A stretch of DNA of 49,709 nucleotides from Candidatus Gastranaerophilales bacterium (GTDB lineage: Bacteria > Cyanobacteriota > Vampirovibrionia > Gastranaerophilales > Gastranaerophilaceae). Both the position numbers and the translations under genes were made by a program. The stretch spans positions 1 through 49,709 of the forward strand of contig JAFTXY010000010.1 of the NCBI GenBank assembly GCA_017461425.1, in the 5' to 3' direction. Shown piece after piece: positions 2,041 to 19,187 of this stretch; the stretch's first letter is position 1; each line of letters starts with the position of its first letter. The notes beneath the pieces were generated by a model. It made no database searches and had not been told where the DNA came from. It saw only the letters and a list, made by a program, of their open reading frames with translations.

Positions 2041-2049
2041 TACTACCTC

Positions 2050-3684
2050 CTAAATTATTCCAAAACGAGATAATAACTCAGAACCATAAGAATCAACCCC
2101 GCCCATATTTTGGATAATTTGAGTACCTTGAGATAATACATCAAGCTGTTGTTTTTGAAGCATACTATTAGAATTTTGCTCACGAATTTTTTCTAATTCA
2201 AATGATGAAACTAATTGCGTTGGGCTAATATTTGCAAAAGTTGCATAATCTTCGATTATTTTTTCACCATTTAATTTAGATTTCAAAACAGGGTCAATAG
2301 CATTTGCGATATTAGAAACAAAAGTTGTAAATCTTTCAATACTAGAAATATTAGCGACTTTTTGAGCTTGAGCCAAACTAGATACAAATTCTATTTTAAG
2401 ATTATTGTTTTTATATTCTTCTTTTAAAGGTTGCAGTATGCCAACACGAAGTTCTTCATCATAAATCCAATCCAAAATTTGTCTTAAAGCAGTATGAATT
2501 TGTTCTAATAATGGAGATAATAAGACCATTTTTTCTTCTTTTAATTCATTGACCTCGGTTGCCGTTCTGCCACGTTGTGCGGTTGATAAAATCATTGCAA
2601 ATAAATCATTATAAAAGTGTTCTTTAATTGCTTGTTTTAATTCATCTTTTTCTTGCTTTAATTCCAAAACTCTTGGGTTTACTTCATAAACAGGAGTAAT
2701 ACCTCTTCCGTTTTCATCTTCTTCAATATAGGCACCTGGAACATCTGCAAGTTTTTTATTTTTTAAACTTGCAGGACCCTTGTATGTAGGACAAACAATT
2801 TTTTTAACAGCTTTTGCATATTCTTTAACCATGGTCATTAATTGCTTAACATCCGCCAAGGCATTAATTCCAGGAGATTCTTGAGGATAATCAATGTCGG
2901 ATGAATAACCAGATTCAAAAACAACATATGGGAATTTTGAAAAACCTTTTATTGATAGGAATTCATTTTTTCCGGATAAAATTACAACTGAAATAAATTT
3001 TGAAAATTTTGAATTCAATCTTTTAGACTTATAAAATTTATTAGGTTCTATAAAATGAATTAATTCGTATTGTTTCAATGGGTTTTTAATTGCGACTTGC
3101 TGAATTTCAATAGGGCAATTTGAACCGAATTTTTCAACAATATTTTTTGCTGTTTCCATATAAACTCGACAAAATGTATCAATTTTACCTTTTGAATTTT
3201 TAGCATAAAAATATGAACCAATAGGAAGAACCTTAAAATTAACAACATTGTCATAATCTGACTCTAAGCTCATGCATCCAAATCCAAAAATACCAATTTG
3301 TTTATATATTTCAGGCAAGCATTGATAAAAATTTGAACTATACAAAATTTGTCTTGTTAGCTCTTCTTGTTTAGAGCACCATTTTTTCAAATAAAAATCA
3401 TTATTTAAATCTATATTTGGAAGCTGAGTTTTAAACCAACGATTTGTAGGGCTTGTAGCACCTGACATCATTCCTGATGAAAAATTTCTAAGTGCGATTA
3501 ATGGCGTTGAATCAATTATTTTTCTATTTTTTACAATTGGTTTTCTTGAGTTCCTTGCAATAAATTGAACACTTCTTGGAGAAAAATAATCAGCAAGCTC
3601 TTGCAAGTCAGGCTTTATAATGTTAAAAACATCCTCCATTTCTTTTTTTCGTCTTAAGAAATAATCGACTTCGTAAAATATCAT
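2050..3684 (-). CDS. Putative phage portal protein (544 aa).
   Basis: Size and position directly downstream of the large terminase gene on the same strand. Inferred from gene order, not from a motif. Confidence 0.45.
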   Translation of the reverse strand: MIFYEVDYFLRRKKEMEDVFNIIKPDLQELADYFSPRSVQFIARNSRKPIVKNRKIIDSTPLIALRNFSSGMMSGATSPTNRWFKTQLPNIDLNNDFYLKKWCSKQEELTRQILYSSNFYQCLPEIYKQIGIFGFGCMSLESDYDNVVNFKVLPIGSYFYAKNSKGKIDTFCRVYMETAKNIVEKFGSNCPIEIQQVAIKNPLKQYELIHFIEPNKFYKSKRLNSKFSKFISVVILSGKNEFLSIKGFSKFPYVVFESGYSSDIDYPQESPGINALADVKQLMTMVKEYAKAVKKIVCPTYKGPASLKNKKLADVPGAYIEEDENGRGITPVYEVNPRVLELKQEKDELKQAIKEHFYNDLFAMILSTAQRGRTATEVNELKEEKMVLLSPLLEQIHTALRQILDWIYDEELRVGILQPLKEEYKNNNLKIEFVSSLAQAQKVANISSIERFTTFVSNIANAIDPVLKSKLNGEKIIEDYATFANISPTQLVSSFELEKIREQNSNSMLQKQQLDVLSQGTQIIQNMGGVDSYGSELLSRFGII

Positions 3685-3687
3685 TAG

Positions 3688-3894
3688 TTATTCTCCTAAT
3701 AAAGTTTTTTTCTTATTGACAGAAGTATCTTCTAATCCCAACATAGAAGTTTTAATATTTTGTTTATAAGCAGATAGTTCTTTGTTATTTTGAGAATTTT
3801 TTGTAATATCCGCATCTGCTTCATGGATTTTTACAATATCCTCTTGAATAGTTTCTTTTGGAATTTTTGGTGTTGATGTTTTAACAAAACACAT
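3688..3894 (-). CDS. Small hypothetical protein (68 aa) between the terminase and portal genes.
   Basis: ORF tightly packed between two phage genes (gaps 3 and 19 nt). Confidence 0.3.
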   Translation of the reverse strand: MCFVKTSTPKIPKETIQEDIVKIHEADADITKNSQNNKELSAYKQNIKTSMLGLEDTSVNKKKTLLGE

Positions 3895-3913
3895 ACATTT
3901 CTCCTTTCATTAA

Positions 3914-5236
3914 TTAATCAAATGGTTCAAATTCACTCTCTACTATCGAATCAACCTGAAATGAATTTTGAATTAAGATATTAGAACAATAATTAATTGC
4001 ATAAAGCGCCATCATGGCACAGTCAGCGAAATCAGGGCTTTCATTTTGCTCTTTTCTTAATTCTTTTTTATCTTGAATTGCAATTAAACCATTGGGTTTA
4101 TAAGTCTTTTTTAAATATTCAAGCTGTCTTATTGAATTTTTATCTGTTAATTTTAAATAACCTTTTTCAAGATAATCTCTTAACGCTAAATACCCATCTG
4201 CTCTTGCATTTATTGCAAATTTTGAACAAGCTTTTTTTGCGCCACGAAACCCAATTGTTGAATTAATTATTTTTTGAATACTAATCCAAATTGGATAACC
4301 TAAGCCATCAGCATCCATAATAAGAATTTTGGGTTGCCATTTTGAATATAAAGATATTATTTTACCTTGAGTGACATCAGTATCAGATTCAGACCAACTA
4401 ATTGTTTCTTTTTCAAGCCAAGTAGTACTATTTTGTTGAACAAATAATTTAGCGACACATAAATCAGCACCAGATGCCGACAAATCTACACTCATAACCG
4501 AATTAACAAAATAAGAAGAGTCAACTTCAATTTTTAGATTAACTGAATTATCAAGAATTTCTGATGTAATTAAATATTCATTATTGTTCATTAAAGGATA
4601 TCCAAGCCAAATATGATTATAATCTGATATATTGGTATTTTTGGAAATTTCAGCTTCTTTAATAATTTTTTCATCTACAAAAGGATTATCAAAATAACAT
4701 ATATTAATGTGCAAACAATCTTTTCTTTTTGCGCAAAAATTATAAACAGAATCAAATCTTGTATATCTGTTCATTGTGAAGATTATTACAGAATTCTTTT
4801 TTCTAATTGTTGGAATTATGACATCTAAAGTAGGTTTTGTAATCGATTGAGCTTCATCAATCCAAAGAATATCAATACCTTCCAAACCTTTAATATTAAC
4901 TTTTCCTTGTTCCCTAAAACCTTTGAAAAAGATTTTAGAACCAGTATTTTTATTTGTTAAGCTATCATTTTTTATTTCAAAATCAAGATTGTATTGATTA
5001 ATTAAATCAATAAAAACGGTTTTAACAGATTCGTTAATAGAATTTTGAATCTCTCTACCGCAACATATTCTGACTCGACGATTTTCGCAAATATACAAAA
5101 GAAAACGGGCAGTGCTTTGTGTTTTTCCAGAAGCCCTGCCTCCTTCGAAGAGAAAATAAGAATAATGGTTGAAATGAAAAATAAAGGGATAGAGTTTAGG
5201 AGGGATGTTTAAAATTTCTGGCAAAACATAATTCAT
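3914..5236 (-). CDS. terL: Phage terminase large subunit (PBSX/Terminase_6-like ATPase + nuclease), 440 aa.
   Basis: Walker A FEGGRASGKTQS near the N-terminus, Walker B-like ILWIDEAQ. Size and C-terminal acidic nuclease-like region are typical. Confidence 0.8.
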   Translation of the reverse strand: MNYVLPEILNIPPKLYPFIFHFNHYSYFLFEGGRASGKTQSTARFLLYICENRRVRICCGREIQNSINESVKTVFIDLINQYNLDFEIKNDSLTNKNTGSKIFFKGFREQGKVNIKGLEGIDILWIDEAQSITKPTLDVIIPTIRKKNSVIIFTMNRYTRFDSVYNFCAKRKDCLHINICYFDNPFVDEKIIKEAEISKNTNISDYNHIWLGYPLMNNNEYLITSEILDNSVNLKIEVDSSYFVNSVMSVDLSASGADLCVAKLFVQQNSTTWLEKETISWSESDTDVTQGKIISLYSKWQPKILIMDADGLGYPIWISIQKIINSTIGFRGAKKACSKFAINARADGYLALRDYLEKGYLKLTDKNSIRQLEYLKKTYKPNGLIAIQDKKELRKEQNESPDFADCAMMALYAINYCSNILIQNSFQVDSIVESEFEPFD

Positions 5237-5239
5237 TAT

Positions 5240-5536
5240 TTATTCAAAATCTTCTCCTATGTTAAGTTTTAATTGTTTGCCATCCAAAGTTATTTGATTC
5301 ATTTGAACTTTGTTTAATGTTTTGATTTCTTTATTTGAGTACAAGCCTGCAATTTTTGCTTTATTTTCAATAGCTCTTAAAGCTGCAGAAATATTAGGAT
5401 TTCCGTTTTTATCAATACAATTTAGAGCAATTTCTTTGAGTTCATCAAACTCCCTTAGAGCATCTTCTTGCGTATATTTATTTTCATTTAAGGAAAAGTT
5501 GCTATATTTAATCAGTGAATTATTTTTATCACTCAT
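5240..5536 (-). CDS. Putative terminase small subunit (98 aa).
   Basis: Immediately upstream of terL with overlapping/adjacent stop-start. AALRAIENKAKIAGLYS resembles Terminase_2 small-subunit sequences. Confidence 0.4.
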   Translation of the reverse strand: MSDKNNSLIKYSNFSLNENKYTQEDALREFDELKEIALNCIDKNGNPNISAALRAIENKAKIAGLYSNKEIKTLNKVQMNQITLDGKQLKLNIGEDFE

Positions 5537-5912
5537 TTTCTATTTTTTTAATCAAAACTTTATTTCCGTAAAAATCGCAAGCATACTGTTCTATTGCAAT
5601 AATTTTTCCATTTTTTTTAATTTCTATATTTTTCCCATATTTAAAACCAGATGGCGCTTTATATTTGTTTTTATAGCCCAAAAGTGTTGATGCTACTTCC
5701 TTTTTAAATTTTTCCTTTATCTTAACAGCACCGCCAGAATAAAAATATTGTTCATAAAAATTTTTATGTTCATTATCGCAATAGAAATATAATGCCATTT
5801 TTTTATTACAAATTGGGCAATTGGCAATATATAATCTTCTATTAACTTGTGATTCTTTGTCAATCAAAAACCAAATATCTTCAGCTTGAAATACACTATT
5901 ACAATGACGCAT
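5529..5912 (-). CDS. Hypothetical Cys-rich (zinc-finger-like) protein (127 aa), first gene of the packaging operon.
   Basis: CPICNK...C..EH pattern. The start abuts the GC-rich repeat. Confidence 0.4.
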   Translation of the reverse strand: MRHCNSVFQAEDIWFLIDKESQVNRRLYIANCPICNKKMALYFYCDNEHKNFYEQYFYSGGAVKIKEKFKKEVASTLLGYKNKYKAPSGFKYGKNIEIKKNGKIIAIEQYACDFYGNKVLIKKIENE

Positions 5913-6279: not shown

Positions 6280-6356
6280 GGCGCCTGTCGTCAAGTGGTC
6301 AAGACCTCGGATTGTGGTTCCGATATGCATGGGTTCGAATCCCATCAGGCGCCCCA
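6280..6356 (+). tRNA. tRNA-His (anticodon GTG) with encoded G-1 and 3' CCA.
   Basis: Cloverleaf folds by hand: acceptor GCGCCTG/CAGGCGC, G-1 paired to C73, anticodon arm TCGGA-TTGTGGT-TCCGA, T-arm ATGGG-TTCGAAT-CCCAT. The 3' half nearly matches E. coli tRNA-His. Confidence 0.92.
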
Positions 6357-6473
6357 TATATCAAAATCAACTCCCCTATTGGGAGTTTTTTTGTTGGTCG
6401 CCCTCGGGAGCAATCGCTCCGCTTTTGCCCTCTTGAAAAATGCTCAATGGTTCGCATTTTTCTGCGGCAGAGT
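6343..6473 (+). repeat. att-like repeat copy A (native attB side): tRNA-His 3' end (14 nt) + 74-nt downstream segment D + 43-nt segment S.
   Basis: Direct comparison with the copies at 6474-6561, 15429-15564 and 17946-18035. Confidence 0.8.
6369..6392 (+). terminator. Intrinsic terminator of tRNA-His (ctccc-ctatt-gggag + T7). It is part of the repeated att unit.
   Basis: GC stem with U-run directly after the tRNA. The same hairpin recurs at 6500-6523, 15446-15468 and 17988-18010. Confidence 0.7.
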
Positions 6474-6561
6474 CATCAGGCGCCCCATATATCAAAATCA
6501 ACTCCCCTATTGGGAGTTTTTTTGTTGGTCGCCCTCAGGAACAATCGCTCCGCTTTTGCCC
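6474..6561 (+). repeat. att-like repeat copy B: duplicated tRNA-His 3' end (catcaggcgcccca) + segment D' with SNPs (ctcaggaacaatcgc).
   Basis: About 97% identical to 6343-6430. Diverges into unique DNA at 6562. Confidence 0.8.
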
Positions 6562-6589
6562 TTATACATTGTCTTGCAGGTTGAGAATT

Positions 6590-6657
6590 TCCGACTTCAA
6601 AACGAGAATTTAACTCTCGAAATGAGAATTTTGGACAACTAGTTTTGAAATGTCGGA
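6590..6657. promoter_or_regulatory. Imperfect inverted repeat (tccgacttcaaaac ... gttttgaaatgtcgga) with three gagaattt direct repeats. Candidate recombinase-binding (res/att-like) site next to the resolvase gene.
   Basis: Arms at 6590-6603 and 6642-6657 are reverse complements with a 2-nt indel. Lies between the att copy and the serine recombinase gene. Confidence 0.3.
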
Positions 6658-6680
6658 CAGTTATTTTTGAAAACCTTTTT

Positions 6681-6694
6681 AGGAATAATTATTC
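6681..6694. promoter_or_regulatory. Perfect 14-bp palindrome ggaataattattcc upstream of the resolvase gene. Candidate operator/recombinase site.
   Basis: Perfect dyad symmetry. Shares the aataattatt core with the palindrome at 15587-15610. Confidence 0.3.
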
Positions 6695-6813
6695 CAATAA
6701 ATTTTCTCAAATTGGTTCCTATATTTTGGAGGAGTTCCTACAAAGAAAACATCTGTTAACAATAGTATGAATTTATACAAGAATAAGCAAAAATAAAGGT
6801 TTTTATCGAAACT

Positions 6814-7410
6814 ATGGCAACAAAAGCGTTTTAAAGAGTATCGACAGTACTTCAAGATACTGAAAAGAATAAGATTGATATACTACAATTTGCAAACAGC
6901 AAAAAACTAGGCAATGTAGAATTTATCGAAGAACATTGTTCCGGTCGAATAAGCTACAAAGATAGAAAATTAGGGAAACTACTGGAGTCTATGTATAAAG
7001 GTGATATTTTGATAGTACCAGAGCTTTCAAGGATTGCTCGCTCTGTTACACAAATACTTGAAGTAATAAAGATTACTAAAGATAAGGGTATTACACTTTA
7101 TTCACTAAAGGAAAACTTCTCTAATGAAGAGGACTCAATTTCTGCCACTGTAACAAGTACGATTTTTGCTCTTGTTGCTCAAATTGAAAGAGAATTAATA
7201 AGCTTGCGTACTCGTGAAGCTTTGCAAGCTCGTAAAGCTCAAGGAGTAAAACTCGGTAGACCCCAAGGCAAAGGTAAATCAAAGCTTGATGCCCACAAAG
7301 ACGATATAATAAAGATGTTATCTTTTGGAGTCCCAAAGACTCTTATAGCTAGGCAGTACAATACATCTGTAGGGAATTTATATAATTTTCTTGAAAAATC
7401 AAAATCCTAA
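6814..7410 (+). pseudogene. Small serine recombinase (resolvase/invertase family) disrupted by an in-frame TAA at codon 7 (6832-6834), just before the catalytic RVST serine motif.
   Basis: Reading frame MATKAF*RVSTVLQDTEKNKIDILQF...EEHCSGRISYKDRKLGKLLESMYKGDILIVPELSRIARS... continues into ORF 6991..7410, which carries the resolvase C-terminal HTH (PKTLIARQYNTSVGNLYNFL). Re-initiation at M57 would lack the catalytic serine. Confidence 0.75.
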
Positions 7411-7432
7411 AGACCTATGAAGTTAGGTCTTC
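7409..7432. terminator. Bidirectional hairpin (agaccta-tgaagt-taggtct) between the convergent resolvase and nuclease genes.
   Basis: 7-bp perfect stem located between two converging stop codons. Confidence 0.4.
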
Positions 7433-7446
7433 ATGGAGAATGTAAT

Positions 7447-8625
7447 TTAAAAAGAAACAGGACAAGGATTTACTATGTAGCAAGCTCTTTCATATAATTC
7501 ATCATAGGTTATGATTTCTACATTTCTACAATCACGTCTGTATCGCTCAAAAGTATTCGACTTAATCTTATCATTTATATTACCATTAGGATTTGGAATT
7601 TCTTTGCTATAATTACCAATGATAAAAACAACTTTAGAGTCTTGTACGTCGGCTTGTATTATTCTACCATCACTAGTAACAAATTCTTTTGAAGAATAGT
7701 TTTCAATTAAATCCTGTTTTTGAGCTAAACATTGACTAATCCCATCTATAAAATCAGAACTGAAAGACCATGTATTTGTTCTTGCAGTGCTTCTTCTAGC
7801 ATTAGTAAATATTGGAGTAGTATGCTTTTTTAACTCTACTAGAGTAGTATATTTATCGATGCAAACAAAATCACTTATAGGAGAGCCATGTCCACTTGTA
7901 TCAGGAGTTCCAATGTTAGCTTGAGGAATAATATCTCTTTGAAAAAATAATCTTAATGATATACCTGCAAATATCCAAGTATTAGTTTCAAAAAAAGCTT
8001 GCCAATCGTCTTCTGAAGTGTCGTCATCTTCGAGCAATGCTTTGAATGTTTCTAAAGATTTTTCTTTTGAAGTATCTAACAATCTTTCTAATTGTTGATA
8101 TGACAAATCTTTATCTTGTATAAATTCTTGTATTGTTTGTAGTTGTTCATCCACCTCGAAGCTATTAAACGTATCAATTAATTGGTCTTTACTAATAACT
8201 TTGTACTTGTTTTCAAACTCTCCCAGTTCAATTAAGTCATTAAATCCTTGAATAAAAGAAATCATTTCCCAAAATTTTGAAGCAATATCCCCCTCTTTAA
8301 GTGATATATTTACCTTTTCTTTTGAACCATCTTGGACTTGAGAGGTTACGTCTGCTTTTAGCTTATAAAAAGTAGGACGAGCAATAAATTTATTAGACTC
8401 TCTATTCTTATAAAAAGTCCAACTGCAAAAAGTATTGACTCTAGGATTGTTTGAGAGTTTAAACTCGGTAACAATAGACATTTTATCGTCTCTTTTGTTA
8501 ATATAACAGTGGTTACCGTCATTCGCCAAGCTTATCTCAATATCTCCCCAACTATCGCTATTTGTATCAAAGGATATTTTTTCAAAACCAGTAACAATAT
8601 CTTCCCAATTAATTAGCATTAACAT
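7447..8625 (-). CDS. DUF4263/Shedu-like putative PD-(D/E)xK nuclease, last gene of the defence operon (~392 aa).
   Basis: C-terminal motif GSPISDFVCIDKYTTLVELKK fits PD...ExK. The track start at 8634 is a TTG. An ATG at 8625 with a GAGG RBS is the more likely start, overlapping the upstream gene by 17 nt. Confidence 0.45.
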   Translation of the reverse strand: MLMLINWEDIVTGFEKISFDTNSDSWGDIEISLANDGNHCYINKRDDKMSIVTEFKLSNNPRVNTFCSWTFYKNRESNKFIARPTFYKLKADVTSQVQDGSKEKVNISLKEGDIASKFWEMISFIQGFNDLIELGEFENKYKVISKDQLIDTFNSFEVDEQLQTIQEFIQDKDLSYQQLERLLDTSKEKSLETFKALLEDDDTSEDDWQAFFETNTWIFAGISLRLFFQRDIIPQANIGTPDTSGHGSPISDFVCIDKYTTLVELKKHTTPIFTNARRSTARTNTWSFSSDFIDGISQCLAQKQDLIENYSSKEFVTSDGRIIQADVQDSKVVFIIGNYSKEIPNPNGNINDKIKSNTFERYRRDCRNVEIITYDELYERACYIVNPCPVSF

Positions 8626-11600
8626 TATCCTCAAAGTTTAATTTAGGTAAGCTTTTGACGATTTTTACTGTCGCTACAGACAATGAAATTACACTCAGGA
8701 GCAGGTCAAGTATGTATCTCGGTTTTCCGTGTTCTTCTGCCCAGTCATTCGGGTCATTCTTAATTTGACTGTCTTTGTTTATAGTTACTTGATAACGATC
8801 CATTACCCATTCAATAGCACTCTTACCATTTACCACATAGTCATAAGCAACTTCAGGTATATTTGTTATTCTGATATACGGATTATAAATAATTTCAGAC
8901 TTGTCTTCCTTACTTTTGAATCGCATTTTATCAACAGTAAATATTCCGCTTTCTTCTCCAATTACTTTTACTGTTGCAAGAGGAGCTTGGTCTTCATAGT
9001 TTAGATGTAATTTTGCCAAATCTCTGCCTGCATTAGAGAATGCCCAAAAATCTTCTACTTTATCAACCAATGGAATTCTTGGAAGCATTTTCTTTAAATC
9101 GGCAGCAAACTTGGTTCGATAATCTTCACTATGCAAGATGCCGTAAACATAATAGAAAATATCTTCTTTTGTTACCTTATGACCATATTTTTCTTTAGCA
9201 AGATTATGTATGAAGTCTGTTATACCGTCATGACGAATATATTTATCATTGTCTTCTTCTTGGTTTCCGAATAAAGATTGTTGTTGTGAGTTCTTCTTCT
9301 CATTTTCTTCATACCAATATAGAGGAAAACTCTGTGATTTTTCTATCATATCTAAACAAGGAATACTATTAACTATTAATGAAGAAAAATCCTTATTAGA
9401 CCCTGTTCCTGAAATGGAAATACAAATATTCTCATGCTTATTTGTTGGGAATATTTTGGGTAATTGATAAAGCATTTCATTAAAAGAATTATCTATATAA
9501 CCATTTTGTTTCACAAAGGGTCTATAAATACCTTCATATATTTTGTCAGGGTTAAATCGGCATTCTTTATTCAATTTTAGGCTATTTTTTAATGCTCTTG
9601 ACCAACTGATTTTTGTACTATCAGTATTTATAAATTCTTCAACTTCAATTTCTCTATTGTTTAAATAATCAATTCTTTGCGAATTATAGAAATTTATAGT
9701 ATTTTGCATGTTAATTATTAATTGTTCTTTTGAAGAATTGTAACACCAAGCATCACGACTAGTTACAACACCCCCCGAATATATAGAGAAAAATTTATTT
9801 TTATTTGTAGCATCTTTATCACCTATTGTCGGATATGTTCCAAATAAATCACTTCTCTGATTTAACCAATCATTGTGTTCATTTGGTTTAAGCATTGTTG
9901 GTTCAAATTTTGGCGATAATACAGAACCAACATTTTTAACTATATCAAGTTTTTCTTCTCTTGATAAATAATCACCTATATCATGGTAATATATTGTTAC
10001 TTTTTCTTTTTTGTCATTAGGATTCTTTACAAGTAAAGTTATTGATATAGGTGTTCTGCTACCCTCACCAAAGACATTACCTTTTTCTTTCCTTCTTTGT
10101 TCTCCTGATGTTCTTGCATTACCTCTTAAATTATATACATAAACAGAAGAAAATTCAGTCTCTAAACAATGTCGGAAGCCATCCATACCATTTGAATCCA
10201 ACCAACTACCATTAGATACATAGCAAATAATTCCGCCATTTGAATTTAACCTATCAGATGCCCATCTAAATGCTTTAATATAACTATCGTATAGTCCTTT
10301 ATTTAGAGTTGCATTAGAGTACCTAACATATGTTTCTGAAATCTTGGAATCTAATTTTTCATATTTTTGATTTTTTGCATTATCATTTTCTGACTTTTGA
10401 CCGATTGAATATGGTGGATTACCTACAATAACTGTAATAGGAGTCTCTTTTTGTTTTCGTACTCGTTTTACGTTACGAGGGAAGAATTCTGACGGTATCT
10501 TTTGTTGGTCTTCTTCTCCAAGTTGGAAAGTATCCGTTAAACATATACCCTCAAAGTTTTGGTATTCTCCTTCTTTAGCTCCGATTAAATCATGGTATGT
10601 GTTTTCAATGTTTATGGACGCTATATAATATGCTAACAGGACTATTTCGTTTGCATGAAGTTCCTCTTCATATTTACGTTTTAGGTCTTCTTTTTTAATA
10701 CGTCCTGACTGAAGTAGTCTTGTAATAAAAGTACCAGTACCCGTGAACGGGTCAAGGATATGCACATTTTTATCTGATATATCTCTGTTGAATTCTTTTT
10801 TCAGTACGTCAGCTACAGAGTTGATAATAAAATCAACAACTTCAACAGGAGTATAGACTATGCCCAGTTTCTCAACTACTTTAGGGAGTGCCGTTTTGAA
10901 GAATTTGTCATACAATTCAATAATGACTTTTTGCTTACCCTCAGCATTATCTATACCTTCGCAACGTTGTCTTACGTCAGCGTAGAATTTTTCTAAGGTT
11001 TCAGTTTCTTTATCAATAGCGTTTTCGTCAAGTATATCAAGAATTTTCTGCATAGCTATTGAAACAGAGTTATTACCGATAAAGGAATAATTTTCAAACA
11101 GAGCTTCAAATACAGGACGTGTGATAATATGCTGAGCTAACATTTCAATAGCTTCTTCCTGCATAATGTACGGGTTAATATTTGTATGCAGACCGTCCAT
11201 AAATTCTTTGAAATCGGCTTTGTATTTTTCGTCTGCTACAATACGGGTAATTCTATCCACGTGTCTTTGTGCAATCTGAGCTATATCTTTTGCCCACTGT
11301 TCCCAGTATTTACGGCTTCCGACTTTTTGAACCATACGGGCATATATTACACTTTGAAGTTCCCCAAATTGCATGGTCAGTTGTTTTACGACATTATCAG
11401 AGAGCTTCTCTTCAACACGTTCACGTTTATTTGTAGCAGAGTCTTTAGCTCCACCATCGTCTTCATGTCTAGGGACGCCACCGACAATAACAGTGCCATT
11501 GTCATTCGGGTTCTTTTTATTAAGGTCAATCTTATTTATCATAGCATTGAACCTGTCATCGTGTGCTCTAAGTGCGTTCAAGACAGTCCAAACAACTTTA

Positions 11601-13531
11601 AAGTTATCATTCTTATCAAGAGCTTCTTCGGGTTTAACATTTAAAGGTACTGCAACAGGAATGATAATGTATCCGTATTTTTTACCCTGAGCACGTCTCA
11701 TAACACGTCCTACGGATTGTACAACATCAACCTGTGAATTTCTTGCTGATAAAAACATAACTGCATCCAAAGATGGAACATCCACACCTTCAGAAAGACA
11801 GCGTACATTAGTAAGAATTCTACATTCTTTGCCATCTGTAGGTGCGTGTTTTAACCAAGAAAGTTTTTCATCTCTCATAGAAGCTCCCATCCCACCATCA
11901 ACGTGGTCTGCTTCTACGTTTACAACTTCATTACGTTCTTCTTCAGATAAGCTTTCATAGTAGCTTTCTGAGTGTGTATTAAAGATATTTTTAATTTTTT
12001 GAGATGCTTTAATATTAGGACAAAATGCTACTGCTGTGTGCATAGGGTTAGGGTCAGTTGCACTCAATAATTCAGCTTCATTTTCTTGTCCTGCATATTT
12101 AATCATGCGTTTTGATAAAGCATTTATACAACCTATAAGCTTTGTTGCATCATCTGTATTAATTTCATACTCAGGATTAGAAATTGCTTTTTGCAAGGTA
12201 TCAGGTACTTGGTCGTCAGTCAAAGTTAATACAAGTACTTTGTAATCAGATAACAGGTTATTTTGTACTGCTTCCCCAAATCCTATACGATAAATTTCTT
12301 CTCCATATAATCCTTCATCATCCATAGAACAGAGAATACAGTTATTATCTGTAGCTTTTTGTTTTGCATTATCATCGTATAACCTAGGGGTAGCCGTCAT
12401 ATATAAACGTTTTTTAGACTTAATTATCTGATTATCATGAACTTTAGTAAAAGCAGACTCTTCTTTATTACCTGCAAGAATAACACCTGTTGTACGGTGT
12501 GCTTCATCGCATATAATTAAGTCAAATTCTGCTTTATCTCCAAATTCAGATATAAGTTCTGCCTGAGCTTTAGCAATAACATCTATTGACTGATATGTAG
12601 AGAATACAACAGTCATTCCTTCTTTTTTAGTCGCCTGTATCCACTTGAATTGTTTAACAATGTTATGAACATTAGTTGATGCAGGAAGTGCTAAATCCGT
12701 TACTGAGGTTAGGTTATCATCAGTTTCATTCTTTGAAGTTTTCTTACTTGCTGTAGGGTCAGAACATATACAGATGGCATTTAACTTTTCTTCTGCTTCA
12801 GAATACCATTCATTAAGAGTTTGTCCTAAAAGTGCTATTGACGGTACTAAAAAAAGTATAAGTCCTTTTCCCCCTGTTTCATTTTCTGCAATTTTCAAAG
12901 AAGTATATGTCTTACCTGTACCGCAAGCCATAATGAGTTTACCTCTATTTTTTGTTTTAAAATATTCATGGGTATCATTTATAGCTTTGAGCTGATGTTT
13001 CATTGGAGTCTTCTTTTTAGCACGTGCTCCACTTCCTGATATTCCCTCATCAAGTTTATCCCAATCAACAGGAGACTCTTCAAGTTCTAATAAACTTAAT
13101 CTCGATACAGGTGGGTCTTGGTTTTTAATAGTATTTTCAGCTTCAGAGTTCCATTTATTAGTAGTTGAAATCCAAAGTCTATGAGTGAACTTTTGTTGAG
13201 TTCCGTTTTCATCAAAGAAAATTTTACTTGAAGTTGCAAGGAATGTATCTACATCGGGTTTTGTTATACGGTTATTTTCTTGAAAACATTTGCATTGAAC
13301 TGCCCAGTATTCATCTTTGTATGTTTTAACAACAATATCAATACCTATATCTTTTCCGCCAAAATCACTTCTATATGGAAATTCATTCCACAGCCAAACT
13401 TCTTTCAACTCTGAAGTATAACGAGGGTCTGTTTTTAGGTATGCTTGCATAAGTCTTTCAAAACGTGTACCTTTATCACGTTCAGAAAATGCTATCTTTC
13501 TATACTTTTCTAATATCTGTTCAAATCCCAT
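8609..13531 (-). CDS. Type ISP-like single-polypeptide restriction-modification enzyme, 1640 aa: N-terminal Mrr-like PD-(D/E)xK nuclease, SF2 DEAH translocase, gamma-class N6-adenine methyltransferase, C-terminal target-recognition domain.
   Basis: DIGIDIVV...YWAVQCK (Mrr-cat). Walker A MACGTGKTYT, DEAH box LIICDEAHR, motif III MTATP, motif VI QSVGRVMRR. MTase motif I ILDPFTGTGTF and motif IV VIVGNPPYS. Same domain order as LlaGI/LlaBIII. Confidence 0.8.
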   Translation of the reverse strand: MGFEQILEKYRKIAFSERDKGTRFERLMQAYLKTDPRYTSELKEVWLWNEFPYRSDFGGKDIGIDIVVKTYKDEYWAVQCKCFQENNRITKPDVDTFLATSSKIFFDENGTQQKFTHRLWISTTNKWNSEAENTIKNQDPPVSRLSLLELEESPVDWDKLDEGISGSGARAKKKTPMKHQLKAINDTHEYFKTKNRGKLIMACGTGKTYTSLKIAENETGGKGLILFLVPSIALLGQTLNEWYSEAEEKLNAICICSDPTASKKTSKNETDDNLTSVTDLALPASTNVHNIVKQFKWIQATKKEGMTVVFSTYQSIDVIAKAQAELISEFGDKAEFDLIICDEAHRTTGVILAGNKEESAFTKVHDNQIIKSKKRLYMTATPRLYDDNAKQKATDNNCILCSMDDEGLYGEEIYRIGFGEAVQNNLLSDYKVLVLTLTDDQVPDTLQKAISNPEYEINTDDATKLIGCINALSKRMIKYAGQENEAELLSATDPNPMHTAVAFCPNIKASQKIKNIFNTHSESYYESLSEEERNEVVNVEADHVDGGMGASMRDEKLSWLKHAPTDGKECRILTNVRCLSEGVDVPSLDAVMFLSARNSQVDVVQSVGRVMRRAQGKKYGYIIIPVAVPLNVKPEEALDKNDNFKVVWTVLNALRAHDDRFNAMINKIDLNKKNPNDNGTVIVGGVPRHEDDGGAKDSATNKRERVEEKLSDNVVKQLTMQFGELQSVIYARMVQKVGSRKYWEQWAKDIAQIAQRHVDRITRIVADEKYKADFKEFMDGLHTNINPYIMQEEAIEMLAQHIITRPVFEALFENYSFIGNNSVSIAMQKILDILDENAIDKETETLEKFYADVRQRCEGIDNAEGKQKVIIELYDKFFKTALPKVVEKLGIVYTPVEVVDFIINSVADVLKKEFNRDISDKNVHILDPFTGTGTFITRLLQSGRIKKEDLKRKYEEELHANEIVLLAYYIASINIENTYHDLIGAKEGEYQNFEGICLTDTFQLGEEDQQKIPSEFFPRNVKRVRKQKETPITVIVGNPPYSIGQKSENDNAKNQKYEKLDSKISETYVRYSNATLNKGLYDSYIKAFRWASDRLNSNGGIICYVSNGSWLDSNGMDGFRHCLETEFSSVYVYNLRGNARTSGEQRRKEKGNVFGEGSRTPISITLLVKNPNDKKEKVTIYYHDIGDYLSREEKLDIVKNVGSVLSPKFEPTMLKPNEHNDWLNQRSDLFGTYPTIGDKDATNKNKFFSIYSGGVVTSRDAWCYNSSKEQLIINMQNTINFYNSQRIDYLNNREIEVEEFINTDSTKISWSRALKNSLKLNKECRFNPDKIYEGIYRPFVKQNGYIDNSFNEMLYQLPKIFPTNKHENICISISGTGSNKDFSSLIVNSIPCLDMIEKSQSFPLYWYEENEKKNSQQQSLFGNQEEDNDKYIRHDGITDFIHNLAKEKYGHKVTKEDIFYYVYGILHSEDYRTKFAADLKKMLPRIPLVDKVEDFWAFSNAGRDLAKLHLNYEDQAPLATVKVIGEESGIFTVDKMRFKSKEDKSEIIYNPYIRITNIPEVAYDYVVNGKSAIEWVMDRYQVTINKDSQIKNDPNDWAEEHGKPRYILDLLLSVISLSVATVKIVKSLPKLNFEDNVNAN

Positions 13532-13536
13532 GTATA

Positions 13537-15000
13537 TTACCCCTCTTCAGTTTCCAGTTTCTTGTAAAATTCTACAACTTCTTTATTTGCTACAATTTTG
13601 TTATGGTCAAACCCTCTTATAATAAGTCCATCAAGAGTTCTCGTTCTACTCAATGCTACGTATGCTTGTCCGTAATCAAATATCCTATTGAAATTGACCA
13701 CCAATTTATCAAATGTCATCCCCTGAGACTTATGTATAGTTATACCATAAGCAAGACGTAAAGGGTATTGTGTCCGCTTAATCTTAGTACGTCCTTCTTT
13801 TATGTATTCAAATTCTACAGGAAGTAAATTTGCACGTACCCCATTATCAAACTGTATATCAATAGAACCACCTGTCAGCTGTTTAACTGTACCGCAACTT
13901 CCATTTGCTAATCCTTTTTTAACGTCAATATTCTTTAGAAGCATTACCCTACAACCTTCTTTAAGTTCTAGTTTTTCAGGAGCTTTACAGTCATCATTAA
14001 ACTTCTTTAATGCCATTAAATCATACTTATTAACATTCTTATTGGTTATGTCTTTAGTATTCAATACTGTTACAGATTGCTCTCCAACATCATTGTAAAT
14101 ATAAAGTTCATCTTTAGCTTCATAAGTATAAGGTCTTTCAGGTATCTCATTAAAACACTTATCATTATAGGCATCTGCATCAGCATTAGTTCCAAATATC
14201 TGAAGAATGTCTCTTGATGCTTCATATTCAGGCTCGACATCTCTTTTGTAAAATACTTTCAGGTCTTCAGCACTTGTTTTATCTATACGAACATTATTTA
14301 ATGCTTCTGAAAGTTCTTTCTCTGACTGACGTTTTACCTCTTTTAAAACAACAGGTTTTAAATTTAAGTCATTCCATGTCTGACTATTGAAGCAGAAGTC
14401 TTTTCCGTCTTCTTTCATGCGCACAGGAGGTAATTGAAAGAAATCACCAAATATGAGAACCTGAATACCACCAAAAGGTTTATCATTTTCTCGTATTGCT
14501 TTTAGAACCTCATTAACATAATCAAAGGTAATATTATCTAACATAGATATTTCATCAATAGCAAGCATTTCACAACATAGTAAAGTTTTATACAATGTAG
14601 GTTTTCTACGTATTTTACTAACAACATCTTCGACTGGTTTCTCAGCAAGTCCTATTCCTGCCCAAGAATGAAGAGTCTGTCCATTAACATTAATAGCAGA
14701 TATTCCAGTCGTACTTGTTATATGTAGCTTCTTATCATACTTTTCTTTAAGCTTATTTAGGGTATACGACTTCCCAACTCCAGCACCACCTGTAATGAAG
14801 ACATTATACCCACTATCTATAAGTGAAAGGATTTTTTTTATATTAACATCCTTAGGTTCTTCTATAGGTGTATTTATGTTGTTATCTATTCTATTTTTAT
14901 TACGAAGCCATGAGAACATAGTCTTATTATAGTATAAGAAAGCATCTTCTGTAACTTTGTTAAGTTTTATATTCGCTCTTATAATAGCAGGCAAATACAT
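13537..15000 (-). CDS. PIF1/RecD-like SF1 DNA helicase (AAA_30 + UvrD_C-like), 487 aa. First gene of the operon.
   Basis: Walker A ITGGAGVGKS. Motifs LAIDEISM, GDFFQLPPV, AYGITIHKSQGMTFDKL, YVALSRTRTLDGL. Its stop is 5 nt from the next start, and the RBS of the next gene overlaps its stop. Confidence 0.75.
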   Translation of the reverse strand: MYLPAIIRANIKLNKVTEDAFLYYNKTMFSWLRNKNRIDNNINTPIEEPKDVNIKKILSLIDSGYNVFITGGAGVGKSYTLNKLKEKYDKKLHITSTTGISAINVNGQTLHSWAGIGLAEKPVEDVVSKIRRKPTLYKTLLCCEMLAIDEISMLDNITFDYVNEVLKAIRENDKPFGGIQVLIFGDFFQLPPVRMKEDGKDFCFNSQTWNDLNLKPVVLKEVKRQSEKELSEALNNVRIDKTSAEDLKVFYKRDVEPEYEASRDILQIFGTNADADAYNDKCFNEIPERPYTYEAKDELYIYNDVGEQSVTVLNTKDITNKNVNKYDLMALKKFNDDCKAPEKLELKEGCRVMLLKNIDVKKGLANGSCGTVKQLTGGSIDIQFDNGVRANLLPVEFEYIKEGRTKIKRTQYPLRLAYGITIHKSQGMTFDKLVVNFNRIFDYGQAYVALSRTRTLDGLIIRGFDHNKIVANKEVVEFYKKLETEEG

Positions 15001-15428
15001 TTTGAATGCATATCAACAACAACACATACTATCAGTATGTAGTTCGTCGCAGGCTCCTCACTCCATATTTTAAGTACTTGTCTTTGCAGAGACACACTCT
15101 TAATTTCTTTATCTTCTCCTATTATTTTCGCTTTAAAAATTTTTACTTTTTATGATAATTATTTTTATATAAATCTCTATATAAACAGACTAAACAACAA
15201 TAGCAATAGAGTTTTGACATTTATTAATACAACAAAAAATATTAAAATTTATATAGCAATAGATATTAAGAGACACATTCAAGACCAAGTATTCTCCTAA
15301 TATTATAATAGGTTTGCATACTACGTTTGATAATAACAACTAGATTTTTATAGGTAAATCTACCTTTATCAGGTAATTCTATTGGCATTTTGTCTTCCCC
15401 TAAAGGTTCTAAAATCATCCAATCTCCA

Positions 15429-15564
15429 GCCCCATATATCAAAATCAACTCCCCTATTGGGAGTTTTTTGTTGGTCGCCCTCGGGAGCAACCGCTCCGCT
15501 TTTGCCCTCTTGAAAAATGCTCAATGGTTCGCATTTTTCTGCGGCAGAGTCATCAGGCGCCCCA
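15429..15564 (+). repeat. att-like repeat copy C: partial tRNA-His 3' end + D (T6 variant, aaccgctcc SNP) + S + tRNA 3' end (catcaggcgcccca).
   Basis: Near-identical to 6351-6487. Marks the boundary between island 1 and island 2. Confidence 0.8.
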
Positions 15565-15586
15565 TTACAATAAAAATTACAATAAG

Positions 15587-15644: not shown

Positions 15645-17672
15645 ATGAGTGAAAACATGGTGTCTGCAATAATAGTTGTAATAGTAATTGGGGTAATTTT
15701 GTATCAAGTCTTTTCTTCAAAACAAAAAGAAGAATCTACACCAAAGAATGTTGTTTCAGATAAATTACAAGCATTGTTTGATATGTCACCAAACGATTTT
15801 GCAACTAAAATTTTAGCATCAAAAATTGGTGATTTTTCATCACCCATAACAAAACACCTAAACCTGCCTGAAAGTACTGTAAAAGAGGTTATACATTCTG
15901 CACCTAAATATATGTTTGAATTTAGTATGCTAATTTTATATTTTGCATATGCAGTTTCAAAATCTCGTAACAAAGAAATATCTTATAGTAACTTACTAAA
16001 CTTTGCTACAAAATCTGCTATTTCAGGTATGGGAATGCTTGCATTTGGAATAGACAAAAGAATCTATGATAACTTTGAACCCGTGTTTAAAAATCGTATG
16101 GAATTGTATAACAATAAATCAAATTCTCAAATTAAAAATATTTTATGCAATCTATGCTTTGAAGAAATAAAAGAGGGCAAACCTGTAATTAAAAAAGAAG
16201 TAACTGATAATACAATTAGTGGTATGCCTTTATTTATAGACCATTTGAACAATGTTTTTGCAGGGAATGAATTGTATGTTTTTTCTGAATTAGTATTTAT
16301 GTATATAGACCATAACAGAAAATTATTCGAAACATCAGAAGAAGATACTTCTAACGAATCAGAACACATAGAAACACTAATGTATGATATCGATAGACCT
16401 GAACCTTCGCAGTTCTTTGTAGATACAAGGAAATTAGTAGGAAATTGGTTACAGCAAAGAATGAATCAAATAGATGGAACTCGTTGGATAAAAGGTTATT
16501 TGACTTATCCTGCATTTGAACACCTATCTTTTTCCTATAAAAATCAAATATTTTGTGTAGTTGTAGATATTATTGATGAAAATACAAAAGAATCTTGTTT
16601 GCCTGAAGAAACTAAAAGTTTGCTAATCAATGAATGTAAAAAAAATAATTTAATTCCATGTTTATACAAAGTTTTAGTCGATAATCCTAAAAATCCTGCA
16701 TACAATACACTCAAACAATATAGCGATGGTTGGAATTTATTTGATGCAAGAACAAATGAACCGGTTATTCCTGAAAGGTTAGGAACAGACGATTTTGTAG
16801 AAATGTCTGAATGGGAATTAAACGATTTTGCTATTCAAATTGTAAGAGATTACATAACAGATAATCTAAAATTAAAAATTCTATCCTATCAAAATATTGT
16901 GGGTGTTGACCCACAACTTTGGTTTATGGATGACAATCGTAAAAAAAACTATGTAATTGTAAGGTACACTATGTATCCTAATAAAGATGTTAAAATGCCA
17001 AATAACATTTCAGGTATTCAAAATAAATGTAAAGGTTATGATGGTTTTTTTGCAAGTGTTGCATTTTGCTCAAAAGGAGAAAATCCTTCAATGTTATATA
17101 GAGGTCAAGAATCTTATATTTCCTTTGACGGTTTAAAGAAATTAGAACCTTTAAAAGAAATTCCAACATTACCATTAGAAGAATTTGCATTAAAAATTTC
17201 TGCAAAAGTTGCAAATACTTTTATAAAATTTAATTTAAAAAATTTAACCGAAGATGAAAGATTAGATTATTTATATATGTATTCAACTGAATTGTTACTC
17301 TGCATATACTCTAATTTAATAGTTGAAAGAAATACAAGTGCAAATGAAAATAATTTATTCCCGATATTTTTAGCATATTTAGAAAAAATGACACCCCCTA
17401 ATCATAGAAATTTAATTGATTGGACAAATGTTGTTATGAGTAGATGCAAAATTTATCGGCAAATGGTGAACTTGGATAAAGATACCTATAGTTTATATTT
17501 TACTAAACTTTGTCAGCACGAAATTATTAATGGAACTATCTATACATATGAATCAATAGAAAATATACCGACAACTTCGTATGATAGCAAGTTGAACCGT
17601 TTCTATGAGGAAATTACAAAGACAAATATAATTTATGATATAAAAAATAAACTAAAAAGTTATTTATCGTAA
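15645..17672 (+). CDS. Hypothetical membrane-anchored protein (N-terminal TM helix, 675 aa). Sole cargo of the island bounded by att copies C and D.
   Basis: AGGAG RBS. Hydrophobic segment AIIVVIVIGVILYQVF at the N-terminus. No recognised catalytic motif. Confidence 0.6.
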   Translation: MSENMVSAIIVVIVIGVILYQVFSSKQKEESTPKNVVSDKLQALFDMSPNDFATKILASKIGDFSSPITKHLNLPESTVKEVIHSAPKYMFEFSMLILYFAYAVSKSRNKEISYSNLLNFATKSAISGMGMLAFGIDKRIYDNFEPVFKNRMELYNNKSNSQIKNILCNLCFEEIKEGKPVIKKEVTDNTISGMPLFIDHLNNVFAGNELYVFSELVFMYIDHNRKLFETSEEDTSNESEHIETLMYDIDRPEPSQFFVDTRKLVGNWLQQRMNQIDGTRWIKGYLTYPAFEHLSFSYKNQIFCVVVDIIDENTKESCLPEETKSLLINECKKNNLIPCLYKVLVDNPKNPAYNTLKQYSDGWNLFDARTNEPVIPERLGTDDFVEMSEWELNDFAIQIVRDYITDNLKLKILSYQNIVGVDPQLWFMDDNRKKNYVIVRYTMYPNKDVKMPNNISGIQNKCKGYDGFFASVAFCSKGENPSMLYRGQESYISFDGLKKLEPLKEIPTLPLEEFALKISAKVANTFIKFNLKNLTEDERLDYLYMYSTELLLCIYSNLIVERNTSANENNLFPIFLAYLEKMTPPNHRNLIDWTNVVMSRCKIYRQMVNLDKDTYSLYFTKLCQHEIINGTIYTYESIENIPTTSYDSKLNRFYEEITKTNIIYDIKNKLKSYLS

Positions 17673-18044: not shown

Positions 18045-19187
18045 TTAATCCAAAAGTGACGAAACGAGCTCTTTTGCGTAAAGCTCAGATTCTTTATCAA
18101 AACTACTCATTTTAGTAATTTTATCGCTTGGAATTTTACCTACAATTTCAATATCAGATGGTTTTATTGAATCTGTATAAAAATACTCTAATGGTTTATC
18201 ATTATACTCATCTAATTTGTCCAATCCTATGCCTTCTTGAATTCGCTGTAGATAATCAGAAAGAAAAATGTTCATAACAATATTTTCGGCGCCTAAGTTA
18301 TCATTTGGCGCAATTTTATTATCAATAAGATAATCTTCTAATAAAGTGTAATCATCGCTATCTTGTTCTGATAATAATCGATATTGAGGAAAAGGATTTA
18401 AAATATCTTCCTGATTTCTAACTTTAATTTTATCTAAATTAAGATTTCTTGTAGGTACTTTTAATAAAACCAATCCAGCATTTTCATCAGAATGAAATGC
18501 GCAATGATGCAATAATTTAACCAACAAAGATTTTTCTATGCTTGAGTTTTGTTTATTTGTTAAATTTGCCCAATTATGCAGCAAATCACTTTCAGAAACA
18601 AAAAAGCAGGCTTTTTCACCGTCTTCAATTAATCGTTTGTCAAAAGACATATTTAATCCATTTTTTAGAATGCCTGCAAGATTATCTGCATGAGTTATAT
18701 GATATAAATATTCAGGCAATTTTTTTGCATCTTGCTGAGCAATTTCAGGGGTAACAAATGCTGTTTTAGAAACTACTTCATCAGATGAAAACTCAATTCT
18801 TTTCCTTATTGAACCATCTTTATTGAAAGTCTTTTTAATTGCATTGCCATTTGGTTGTCTATCAAGAGTATATAGCTTCACTCCATCTTTTGAATAAACA
18901 GTATCAATTATTGAACCGTATGGAGTATTAACCTTTTGATATAACATAATACCATTAGTATTATATAATCGAAATTTGCCAGGAGTTGTTGTTGTATAAA
19001 ATCTTACTTCGCCTGCATTATTTTTAATTTCGGTTTTATAAACATTTTCCGTATTTATCAAGTCAGGCTGTTGGGATTGAAATGCTCTAATGCTTGCATC
19101 ATCAGTTCTCGAAGCTAATTTATCTGCCGATTTATGCAATTTTATTCTAGAAAAAAATTCTTTTGGATTAATACTTATAGTATGCAT
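18045..19187 (-). CDS. Fusion protein (380 aa): N-terminal MORN/YwqK-like repeats + DarT/Tpt1-like ADP-ribosyltransferase domain.
   Basis: EYLYHITHADNLAGILKNGL closely matches the DarT (DUF4433) signature YHITHIDNLKGIL and the Tpt1 motif LYHGT...IL..GL. The N-terminal G...Y..NG-type repeats (FYTTTTPGKFRLYNTNGIMLYQK...) resemble YwqK/MORN variants. ATG start with AAGGGGA RBS. Confidence 0.55.
   Translation of the reverse strand: MHTISINPKEFFSRIKLHKSADKLASRTDDASIRAFQSQQPDLINTENVYKTEIKNNAGEVRFYTTTTPGKFRLYNTNGIMLYQKVNTPYGSIIDTVYSKDGVKLYTLDRQPNGNAIKKTFNKDGSIRKRIEFSSDEVVSKTAFVTPEIAQQDAKKLPEYLYHITHADNLAGILKNGLNMSFDKRLIEDGEKACFFVSESDLLHNWANLTNKQNSSIEKSLLVKLLHHCAFHSDENAGLVLLKVPTRNLNLDKIKVRNQEDILNPFPQYRLLSEQDSDDYTLLEDYLIDNKIAPNDNLGAENIVMNIFLSDYLQRIQEGIGLDKLDEYNDKPLEYFYTDSIKPSDIEIVGKIPSDKITKMSSFDKESELYAKELVSSLLD

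Follow-up and report, generated by a model that had tools for sequence, protein, structure and literature searches.

Three tightly packed genes encoding a Pif1 helicase, a Type ISP enzyme and a Shedu nuclease

The DNA analyzed here, referred to as the window, is a stretch of 49,709 nucleotides (contig JAFTXY010000010.1, assembly GCA_017461425.1) from the chromosome of a Candidatus Gastranaerophilales bacterium. On an island next to its tRNA-His gene, it contains three minus-strand genes that encode, in the direction of transcription, a Pif1-family helicase of superfamily 1B (SF1B) of 460 residues (13537..14919), a Type ISP restriction-modification (R-M) enzyme of 1640 residues, hereafter ISP (8609..13531), and SduA, a Shedu nuclease with a type I architecture, of 390 residues (7447..8619). 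The locus is composed of a known Type ISP R-M system, a Shedu rider of a known kind, and a previously undescribed Pif1 partner that is specific for one ISP sub-clade. A Type ISP gene with a coupled helicase partner is a novel and apparently undescribed feature; our literature search found no paper dealing with both Type ISP enzymes and Pif1, nor one dealing with a helicase accessory to a Type ISP enzyme.

The corresponding open reading frames (ORFs) span positions 13537-15000, 8609-13531 and 7447-8634, and the NCBI product names of the three genes are “AAA family ATPase”, “DEAD/DEAH box helicase” and “DUF4263 domain-containing protein”, respectively. An initial annotation of this stretch had called three minus-strand genes at these positions, interpreted as a PIF1-like helicase, a Type ISP-like enzyme and a Shedu-like nuclease; the coordinates were confirmed, and Pfam, PADLOC and PDB searches of the three ORFs showed that its domain assignments were all correct. 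Its description of the gene junctions also agrees with the sequence. The Pif1 stop codon (TAA 13539-13537) is separated by 5 nt from the ISP start codon (ATG 13531), and the ribosome-binding site proposed for ISP, GAGGGG (13545-13540), lies within the last two Pif1 codons and directly abuts the Pif1 stop. The SduA gene begins inside the 3' end of the ISP gene: its ATG at position 8619 results in an 11-nt overlap with ISP, which ends with TAA at 8611-8609, and GAGGA is present 8 nt upstream of this ATG. The proposal that the three genes are packed as one operon is likewise upheld. The sole terminator-like hairpin at an operon boundary, followed by a T-run (7408..7433, minus strand), is located directly after the SduA stop codon. 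We consider it the probable operon end by virtue of its position, because the promoter and terminator scans gave results at chance level (42 found versus 37 expected, and 3 versus 3.3, respectively).

The predicted Type ISP enzyme is complete and diversifying

The Pfam domains Mrr_cat_2, ResIII, Helicase_C, ISP_coupler, Eco57I and Type_ISP_C are present in ISP in the order typical of the family, corresponding to an Mrr nuclease, a superfamily 2 (SF2) motor, a coupler, a gamma-class N6-adenine methyltransferase (MTase) and a target recognition domain (TRD). The protein matches the PADLOC model REase_MTase_IIG end to end (2294 bits), its residues 16-1633 align with LlaBIII (4xqk; 1214 bits), and the alignment with LlaGI (5ffj) is full length too. 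The nuclease and motor motifs are located at residues 63 (GIDIV), 79 (QCK), 204 (GTGKT), 342 (DEAH), 379 (TATP) and 605 (QSVGRVMR), and those of the MTase at residues 927 (DPFTGTGTF) and 1038 (NPPY). In an alignment of three sequences, the catalytic motifs (nuclease D...QxK, Walker A, DEAH, motif VI, FxGxG and NPPY) are invariant. The domain searches and motif positions bear out the earlier claim that the 1640-residue protein has intact nuclease and MTase motifs, and the gene is predicted to encode a complete enzyme of the LlaGI/LlaBIII type.

The core of the TRD (residues 1226-1430) is only 35-58% identical in comparisons in which the motor is 93-96% identical. Nucleotide similarity with loci L002, L015 and L016 is lost over positions ~9250-9850, and the hypervariable TRD cassette corresponds to window positions 9244-9850. 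The ratio of nonsynonymous to synonymous substitutions (dN/dS) of ISP is 0.08-0.12, and by these signatures ISP appears to be an active, diversifying enzyme. The ISP genes are also evident mosaics made by recombination, with domains shuffled among lineages, because the coupler domain of L006 and L020 is 91-92% identical to that of the window while their motors are only 66% identical. Separately, we observed that ORFs of 170-182 codons belonging to the Phage_integrase family adjoin the ISP genes in several lineages (L006 11545-12087, L009 6070-6582, L109 1363-1911 and L113 1264-1812); these may be drivers of TRD or cassette rearrangement, or fragments.

Enzymes of the Type ISP family recognize their site and then undergo unidirectional, ATP-driven translocation; the 3'-5' strand is nicked upon collision with a converging enzyme, and unrelated roadblocks do not activate cleavage. 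Repeated nicking leads to breaks, mostly with 3' overhangs of at least 30 nt. By homology, ISP would methylate one strand of an asymmetric site, translocate double-stranded DNA (dsDNA) at the expense of ATP and nick the 3'-5' strand on collision.

The Pif1 gene is under strong purifying selection

The helicase gene product matches the Pfam families PIF1 (3e-32, 112 bits) and Pif1_2B, and PIF1 structures in the PDB at ~1e-57 to 1e-64. Motifs I, II, III, V and VI are intact (among them Walker A GAGVGKS, DEISM, QLPPV and HKSQG) and invariant in the Pif1 alignment. Judged from its family membership, the protein would translocate along single-stranded DNA in the 5'-3' direction and unwind DNA. The ORF is open back to position 15000. 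However, the start codon is most likely the ATG at position 14919 (M28 of the ORF), because the homologs have 458-464 residues and open with the same MFSWLKK peptide, with MFSWL[KR] as the shared pattern, and because positions 14971-15472 belong to the backbone that is also present in a locus without a Pif1 gene, L011, where they match positions 553-1051 at 94% nucleotide identity. The non-coding backbone upstream of the Pif1 gene (14920..15268, minus strand) is the likely promoter region; in L011, its counterpart with 94% identity lies ahead of the Type I R-M operon. The dN/dS values of 0.04-0.08 at a synonymous distance (dS) of ~1 indicate strong purifying selection on the Pif1 gene.

The termini of the Pif1 proteins vary with their genomic setting. 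Pif1s whose genes precede ISP have a common N-terminal peptide (MFSWLKK, MGIFDFLKK or MFEWFRK; window positions 14899-14919 and homologs), those whose genes follow ISP have a common C-terminal tail consisting of [NS]-C-hydrophobic, and unlinked Pif1s have neither the peptide nor the tail. These terminal peptides may be docking motifs.

Pif1 and ISP are linked in one sub-clade

A survey of one genome per GTDB species gave 377 ISP relatives, and the best 80 of these (52-85% identity, flanks of up to 8 kb) were examined by tblastn. A Pif1 gene is adjacent to ISP in five of these 80 loci, being upstream in L015, L016 and L020 and downstream in L018 and L019, and all five ISPs show at least 67% identity to that of the window. 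In addition, the depth of the Pif1 tree was sampled by 12 exact-protein look-ups. From the loci that were read directly, we count ten diverged lineages with a Pif1-ISP pair, in which the gap between the two genes ranges from -4 to +5 nt. The order Pif1>ISP is found in the window and its copy L001, L002-5, L013, L015, L016, L006, L020 and the decayed loci L007-10, and the order ISP>Pif1 in L018/19 together with L113-115 and in L109-112. The Pif1 homologs that are 86%, 71% and 65% identical are all encoded directly upstream of ISP, with a differing gene after ISP, and for those at 62-64% identity (P0036, P0043) the order is ISP>Pif1, and the two genes either adjoin directly (0 nt) or overlap by 1 nt. 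The linked loci belong to metagenome-assembled genomes (MAGs) labelled Gastranaerophilales, Clostridia or rumen bacterium. Seven more Pif1 clusters and three more SduA clusters were placed on contigs with ISP by circumstantial evidence.

The pair was not found beyond this group. The 53% Pif1 homolog P0081 has no ISP nearby. In plasmid records, we detected 176 ISP homologs and Pif1 relatives of only <=35% identity, with no shared accession among the matches listed. Viral contigs contained Pif1 relatives of only 28-41% identity, none of them near an ISP, one ISP locus without Pif1, and no SduA relative. By these surveys, the Pif1-ISP pair is limited to a single sub-clade of ISPs, found in bacteria of the gut and rumen. 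It is not obligatory there, as two of the ISP loci lacking Pif1 lie inside the sub-clade.

In four samples (L007-L010), an intact Pif1 gene (476 aa) adjoins an ISP gene that is broken in two, one part encoding a 183-aa Mrr piece and the other a truncated product of 767 or 979 aa; this is either decay in progress or a split variant.

A probable single union of the two genes

The linked ISPs form one clade, to which L021 is basal. Since L017 is nested within this clade, the absence of Pif1 from L017 is explained as a loss. Distances among the ISPs correlate with those among the Pif1 proteins (r = 0.88), with the caveat that the pairs are not independent. Ten independent unions were considered and rejected, because the trees point to a single ancestral union, a single swap of the gene order, one loss or more, and spread among Gastranaerophilales, Clostridia and rumen-bacterium MAGs.

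A single origin of the pairing, and the solitary ISPs within the clade, would also be in line with a chance accumulation of three independent genes in a defence island, with Pif1 having no functional tie to ISP. The slot between the two recombinase genes of the island is indeed a cargo hotspot, occupied by a Type I R-M operon in L011, by a TIR-like cassette in L002 and by SduA in other loci. However, the near-zero spacing has been retained through an inversion of the gene order, through transfer between phyla and over a divergence of more than one synonymous substitution per site. The pair has no conserved third gene, coupling to a different operon of the restriction type is seen for a sister Pif1 (see below), and Pif1 alone corresponds to no known defence system in PADLOC. 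The case for a functional tie rests on this spacing through the order swap, on nothing else being conserved with the pair, on the dN/dS of Pif1 and on the sister-branch operon, and together these make chance adjacency unlikely in our view.

Alternatively, Pif1 might be part of the replication or transfer module of a mobile element, as are the SF1B helicases of phage satellites, rather than of the R-M system. Genes for a DnaG-like primase and a DnaB-like helicase immediately precede the Pif1 gene of L013, and a preprint on PLE/ICP1 describes SF1B helicases that drive satellite replication. Against this, no replication genes flank the pair in L002, L006, L109 or L113, the order ISP>Pif1 puts ISP in between the helicase and any upstream module, and in the window the pair is still maintained, with strong purifying selection, on what is the remnant of a dead island. 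We regard a role in element replication as quite improbable.

SduA is a separable module behind R-M genes

SduA matches Pfam SduA_C (3.5e-24; residues 206-381) and PADLOC SduA (3e-55). We place its start at ATG 8619 (390 aa), as predicted from the sequence, and not at TTG 8634. The predicted catalytic residues D250, E262 and K264 are invariant across 55 homologs. In a Foldseek search with the AlphaFold2 (AF2) model of SduA (pLDDT 84.6), the significant matches were Shedu structures only, the top ones being 8ti9, 8ps4 and 8ti8 (Shedu of B. cereus and E. coli). Comparison with 8ps4 and 8ps5 gave global TM scores of 0.37-0.38 and root mean square deviations (rmsd) of >17 Å, and the beta-rich N-terminal domain had no specific match in Foldseek, including the solved end-sensing clamps. 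Type I Shedu proteins have a long variable N-terminal region and a C-terminal DUF4263 domain, at a size of ~386 aa (Loeff et al. 2023, 10.1101/2023.08.10.552762), and the size and layout of SduA fit this type.

SduA is the last gene of an R-M operon in the window, L011, L013 and L015, and a 55% homolog in L014 is solitary. The homologs form a tight clade (55-83% identity). An 80% identical SduA in L011 follows a Type I R-M operon with the organization HsdR-HNH-HsdM-x-HsdS and precedes the same resolvase gene as in the window, and a 67% identical one is part of a Pif1-ISP-SduA trio in L013. Amid hsdR, hsdM and hsdS, the L011 operon encodes a 534-aa HNH protein (3890-5494) and contains a 253-codon ORF (7058-7819). 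Window positions 6720-8278, comprising the resolvase gene and the 3' two-thirds of sduA, are 90% identical to L011 at the nucleotide level; the cargo between this flank and the other one (14971-15472) is completely different in the two loci. In synonymous distance, too, the copy linked to Type I R-M is the nearer one to the window SduA (dS 0.43), the SduAs in the other trios being at dS ~1.4.

Residues 1-115 of SduA (window 8279-8619) are unlike those of all close relatives, and the remainder is nearly identical to the Type I R-M-linked copy. Because the N-terminal ~115 residues differ from every relative, we place the breakpoint of the cassette swap, as deduced from these comparisons, inside sduA. 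The exchange of a Type I R-M operon and a Pif1-ISP pair in front of the same Shedu gene would constitute a clean natural example of R-M cassette exchange by recombination inside a flanking defence gene.

The gene following ISP varies: it is sduA in the window, L013 and L015, a different cassette in L002-L004, and near nothing, namely a 48-codon ORF, in L006. The cassette of L002-L004 consists of overlapping 161- and 327-codon ORFs (L002 14341-15809), the latter encoding a region resembling TIR effectors (PADLOC 3e-9), and may represent an alternative effector cassette in the slot that SduA fills in other loci.

The initial annotation had proposed that the three genes constitute a composite defence system, or a Shedu/R-M hybrid. 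An obligate system of three components, in which, for example, ISP recognizes and translocates, Pif1 unwinds and SduA cuts, would be in line with the recurrence of the trio in diverged Gastranaerophilales islands (the window, L013 and L015) and with three further trios deduced circumstantially (P0122/P0264/P0003, P0131/P0261 and P0133/P0278). Moreover, the SduA start overlaps the ISP stop, and the 5' end of the window sduA apparently arrived with the ISP cassette. The three genes do not co-occur as a conserved unit, however: SduA is absent from seven of the ten Pif1-ISP lineages, and among the 80 surveyed ISP loci, this SduA is present in just one. Its closest relative is encoded behind a Type I R-M operon and another SduA is solitary, and ISP retains its own intact Mrr nuclease. 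Shedu genes within R-M loci have, in addition, already been published (602 of 5,499 Shedu genes; Gu et al. 2023, 10.1101/2023.08.10.552793, and Loeff et al. 2023, 10.1101/2023.08.10.552762). The proposal of an obligate composite or hybrid was therefore abandoned as improbable. Because a Type I R-M-linked copy, a solitary copy and Pif1-ISP loci without SduA all exist, SduA is best described as a separable module that is predicted to be co-transcribed behind R-M genes.

A sister Pif1 is coupled to another restriction-like operon

The sister Pif1 P0035 (64% identity) is coupled to a different, restriction-like operon (L121-L123, 7001-15716). Its four tightly packed genes encode Pif1 (571 aa), a UvrD-type helicase that carries a PD-(D/E)xK/Cas4 nuclease (956 aa), a Type III-like MTase (589 aa) and a TnsA_N-like protein, regarded as a TnsA-like endonuclease (877 aa). 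Its composition suggests an undescribed, restriction-like system that employs a Pif1 of the same sub-clade. It is conceivable that this Pif1 sub-clade was recruited as a dedicated second motor for restriction enzymes, of ISP in two gene orders and of the UvrD-nuclease/MTase/TnsA-like system. Such a motor might join the collision complex or load at nicks, and might convert nicks into unrepairable unwound or gapped DNA, or relax the head-to-head requirement. We put this forward tentatively, as a possibility that we do not favour.

The extension of this coupling to the whole Pif1 clade of >55% identity was rejected: the basal Pif1 P0049, which has an RQC domain, is encoded by a chromosomal gene that is merely located beside a variable hotspot. 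The hotspot upstream of this gene contains a Hachiman-like pair (HamA and a helicase) and an MTase gene in L125 (844-7230) and unrelated genes in L124.

The island is an immobilised remnant

The tRNA-His (GTG) gene that served as the integration site is located at 6281..6356 (plus strand), and the Rfam search gave no match on the island except this tRNA. Direct repeats of the tRNA 3' end and its flank are located at positions 6343, 6474, 15420/15535 and 17946/17962. Two tandem att-like copies at 6343..6562 (plus strand; repeat families D1-D3) form the left island boundary, and a copy found by the repeat search at 15420..15565 (plus strand) forms the right boundary of island 1. These repeats substantiate the location on a tRNA-His island given in the initial annotation. 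An independent contig (L001, 8,952 bp) is 100% identical to window positions 6507-15458.

Both recombinase genes of island 1 are defective. The gene for a small serine recombinase (resolvase; 6814..7410, plus strand) is a pseudogene with TAA at codon 7, preceding the catalytic Ser, where the intact 198-aa homolog in L011 (10201-10797) has Leu; the identical stop codon is present in L001. Of a large serine recombinase gene, which is intact in L011 (603 aa), only the last ~55 codons are left (15269..15430, minus strand), cut off by the att repeat. Because the resolvase gene is dead and the large serine recombinase gene is reduced to this remnant, island 1 is immobilised, a dead remnant.

On the other side of the tRNA-His gene, window positions 114-5912 (minus strand) contain phage structural genes, probably one end of a prophage, including those for a protease (114-665), a T7-like portal (2050-3684) and a large terminase (3914-5236). 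A second island in between att copies carries a 675-codon ORF (15645-17672, plus strand) without a match in Pfam, PADLOC, NCBIfam or PHROGs. The neighbouring 380-codon ORF (18045-19187, minus strand) is blank too, save for a negligible DarT-like match.

Discussion

We have described a locus that we interpret as a Type ISP R-M system with an accessory 5'-3' Pif1 helicase and an independent Shedu rider, on an immobilised tRNA-His island, and we assign this interpretation a probability of about 60%. The identities of the genes, their operon packing, conservation and modularity, and the purifying selection can be read directly from the loci; from these, we infer the role of Pif1 and any synergy between the proteins. 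Pif1 would be a lineage-specific accessory partner of one ISP sub-clade, with both proteins produced from one mRNA by coupled translation. It would act on the nicked or gapped products of collision, or on the displaced or opposite strand, and would render the damage made by ISP irreversible, extend it or widen the range of substrates, in the way that RecD complements RecB. SduA would be an autonomous Shedu nuclease at the 3' end of whichever R-M operon fills the island slot, providing a second layer that attacks DNA ends resulting from R-M cleavage or backs up the R-M system. SduA could attack such ends because SduA of the E. coli Shedu system senses free DNA ends with its N-terminal clamp; by analogy this may hold here, with an N-terminal domain that has no match to the solved clamps.

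The linkage to ISP genes in other genomes, a point raised by the initial annotation, turned out to be loose for SduA, and for Pif1 it is real within one sub-clade. Several observations weigh against an accessory role of Pif1. Pif1 is absent from 75 of the 80 ISP loci, including all 73 loci at <=61% identity, which have no Pif1 within 8 kb. Two close ISPs are solitary as well (L017 at 76% and L021 at 66% identity), showing that Pif1 is dispensable for them. No Pif1-ISP fusion was found among the best 120 ISP homologs or the best 120 Pif1 homologs. The intact Pif1 genes beside broken ISP genes in L007-L010 suggest that Pif1 may have a use of its own. Given a single ancestral union, the persistence of the pair could partly reflect co-transfer as a compact cassette instead of function. 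Finally, the 3' overhangs that mainly result from LlaGI cleavage are not a preferred loading site for a 5'-3' helicase.

Pif1 could also protect or regulate instead of adding to the damage, by stripping stalled or colliding ISP motors off the chromosome, or by clearing roadblocks or R-loops for the translocase. Eukaryotic Pif1-family helicases are described to displace proteins and to resolve R-loops and G4 DNA, and ISP translocates far and stays on DNA as a collision complex. However, solitary ISPs are the norm and are tolerated, and we give such a protective function very little credence.

Restriction by a single polypeptide has its textbook example in the Type ISP enzymes, and a conserved, coupled helicase would make some of them two-protein machines. 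An accessory Pif1 may cover a weakness of ISP, be it the nick-only chemistry, the requirement for head-to-head sites or the lack of downstream DNA degradation. What Pif1 does in bacteria was already an open question in 2011, if not before, and little was still known about it in 2023. If Pif1 indeed serves as a second motor, this would be the first physiological role for a prokaryotic Pif1. With only two genes, the Pif1-ISP pair of this locus and its relatives is a compact system in which the function of bacterial Pif1 can be tested.

With regard to known systems, SduA resembles the Shedu proteins encoded in R-M loci in its type I architecture, D/E/K residues, nuclease fold and R-M operon setting (10.1101/2023.08.10.552793, 10.1101/2023.08.10.552762). 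It differs in that its N-terminal domain lacks a convincing match to a clamp, and in that its partner is a Type ISP enzyme, which the text consulted does not name explicitly. ISP shares with LlaGI and LlaBIII (5ffj, 4xqk) the domain order, the Mrr D...QxK motif, the DEAH motor, the coupler, the NPPY MTase and the hypervariable TRD. The lactococcal enzymes and most homologs are, however, solitary (75 of the 80 genome loci), and the search of the 176 plasmids with ISP revealed no close Pif1, whereas in the window a Pif1 gene is translationally coupled to ISP.

The locus further calls to mind machines of the RecBCD and AddAB type, which combine an SF1B motor running 5'-3' with a second, nuclease-bearing motor on the 3'-5' strand. 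RecD is the SF1B helicase of the bipolar end-processing machine RecBCD, Pif1 is the family closest to RecD, and the sister operon pairs Pif1 with a UvrD/PD-(D/E)xK protein. ISP, in contrast, is an SF2 dsDNA translocase that does not unwind, and the likeness serves as a working analogy and would not imply membership. For SduA, a possible model is provided by the anticodon nuclease PrrC, a second-line effector whose gene lies inside the EcoprrI Type Ic R-M operon and is co-expressed with it; by analogy, SduA may have a similar position behind Type I or Type ISP genes, although the effector family and the target differ (tRNA for PrrC, DNA for SduA). Finally, the CglI and NgoAVII systems (PMC5737866, PMC5861437), with their separate helicase-like H subunit, set a precedent for cooperation between a restriction endonuclease and an ATP-dependent motor that has a gene of its own. 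There, H.CglI is the sole motor and belongs to the SF2 DEAD-Z1 type, whereas the enzyme described here has a motor of its own and the additional one is of the SF1B type.

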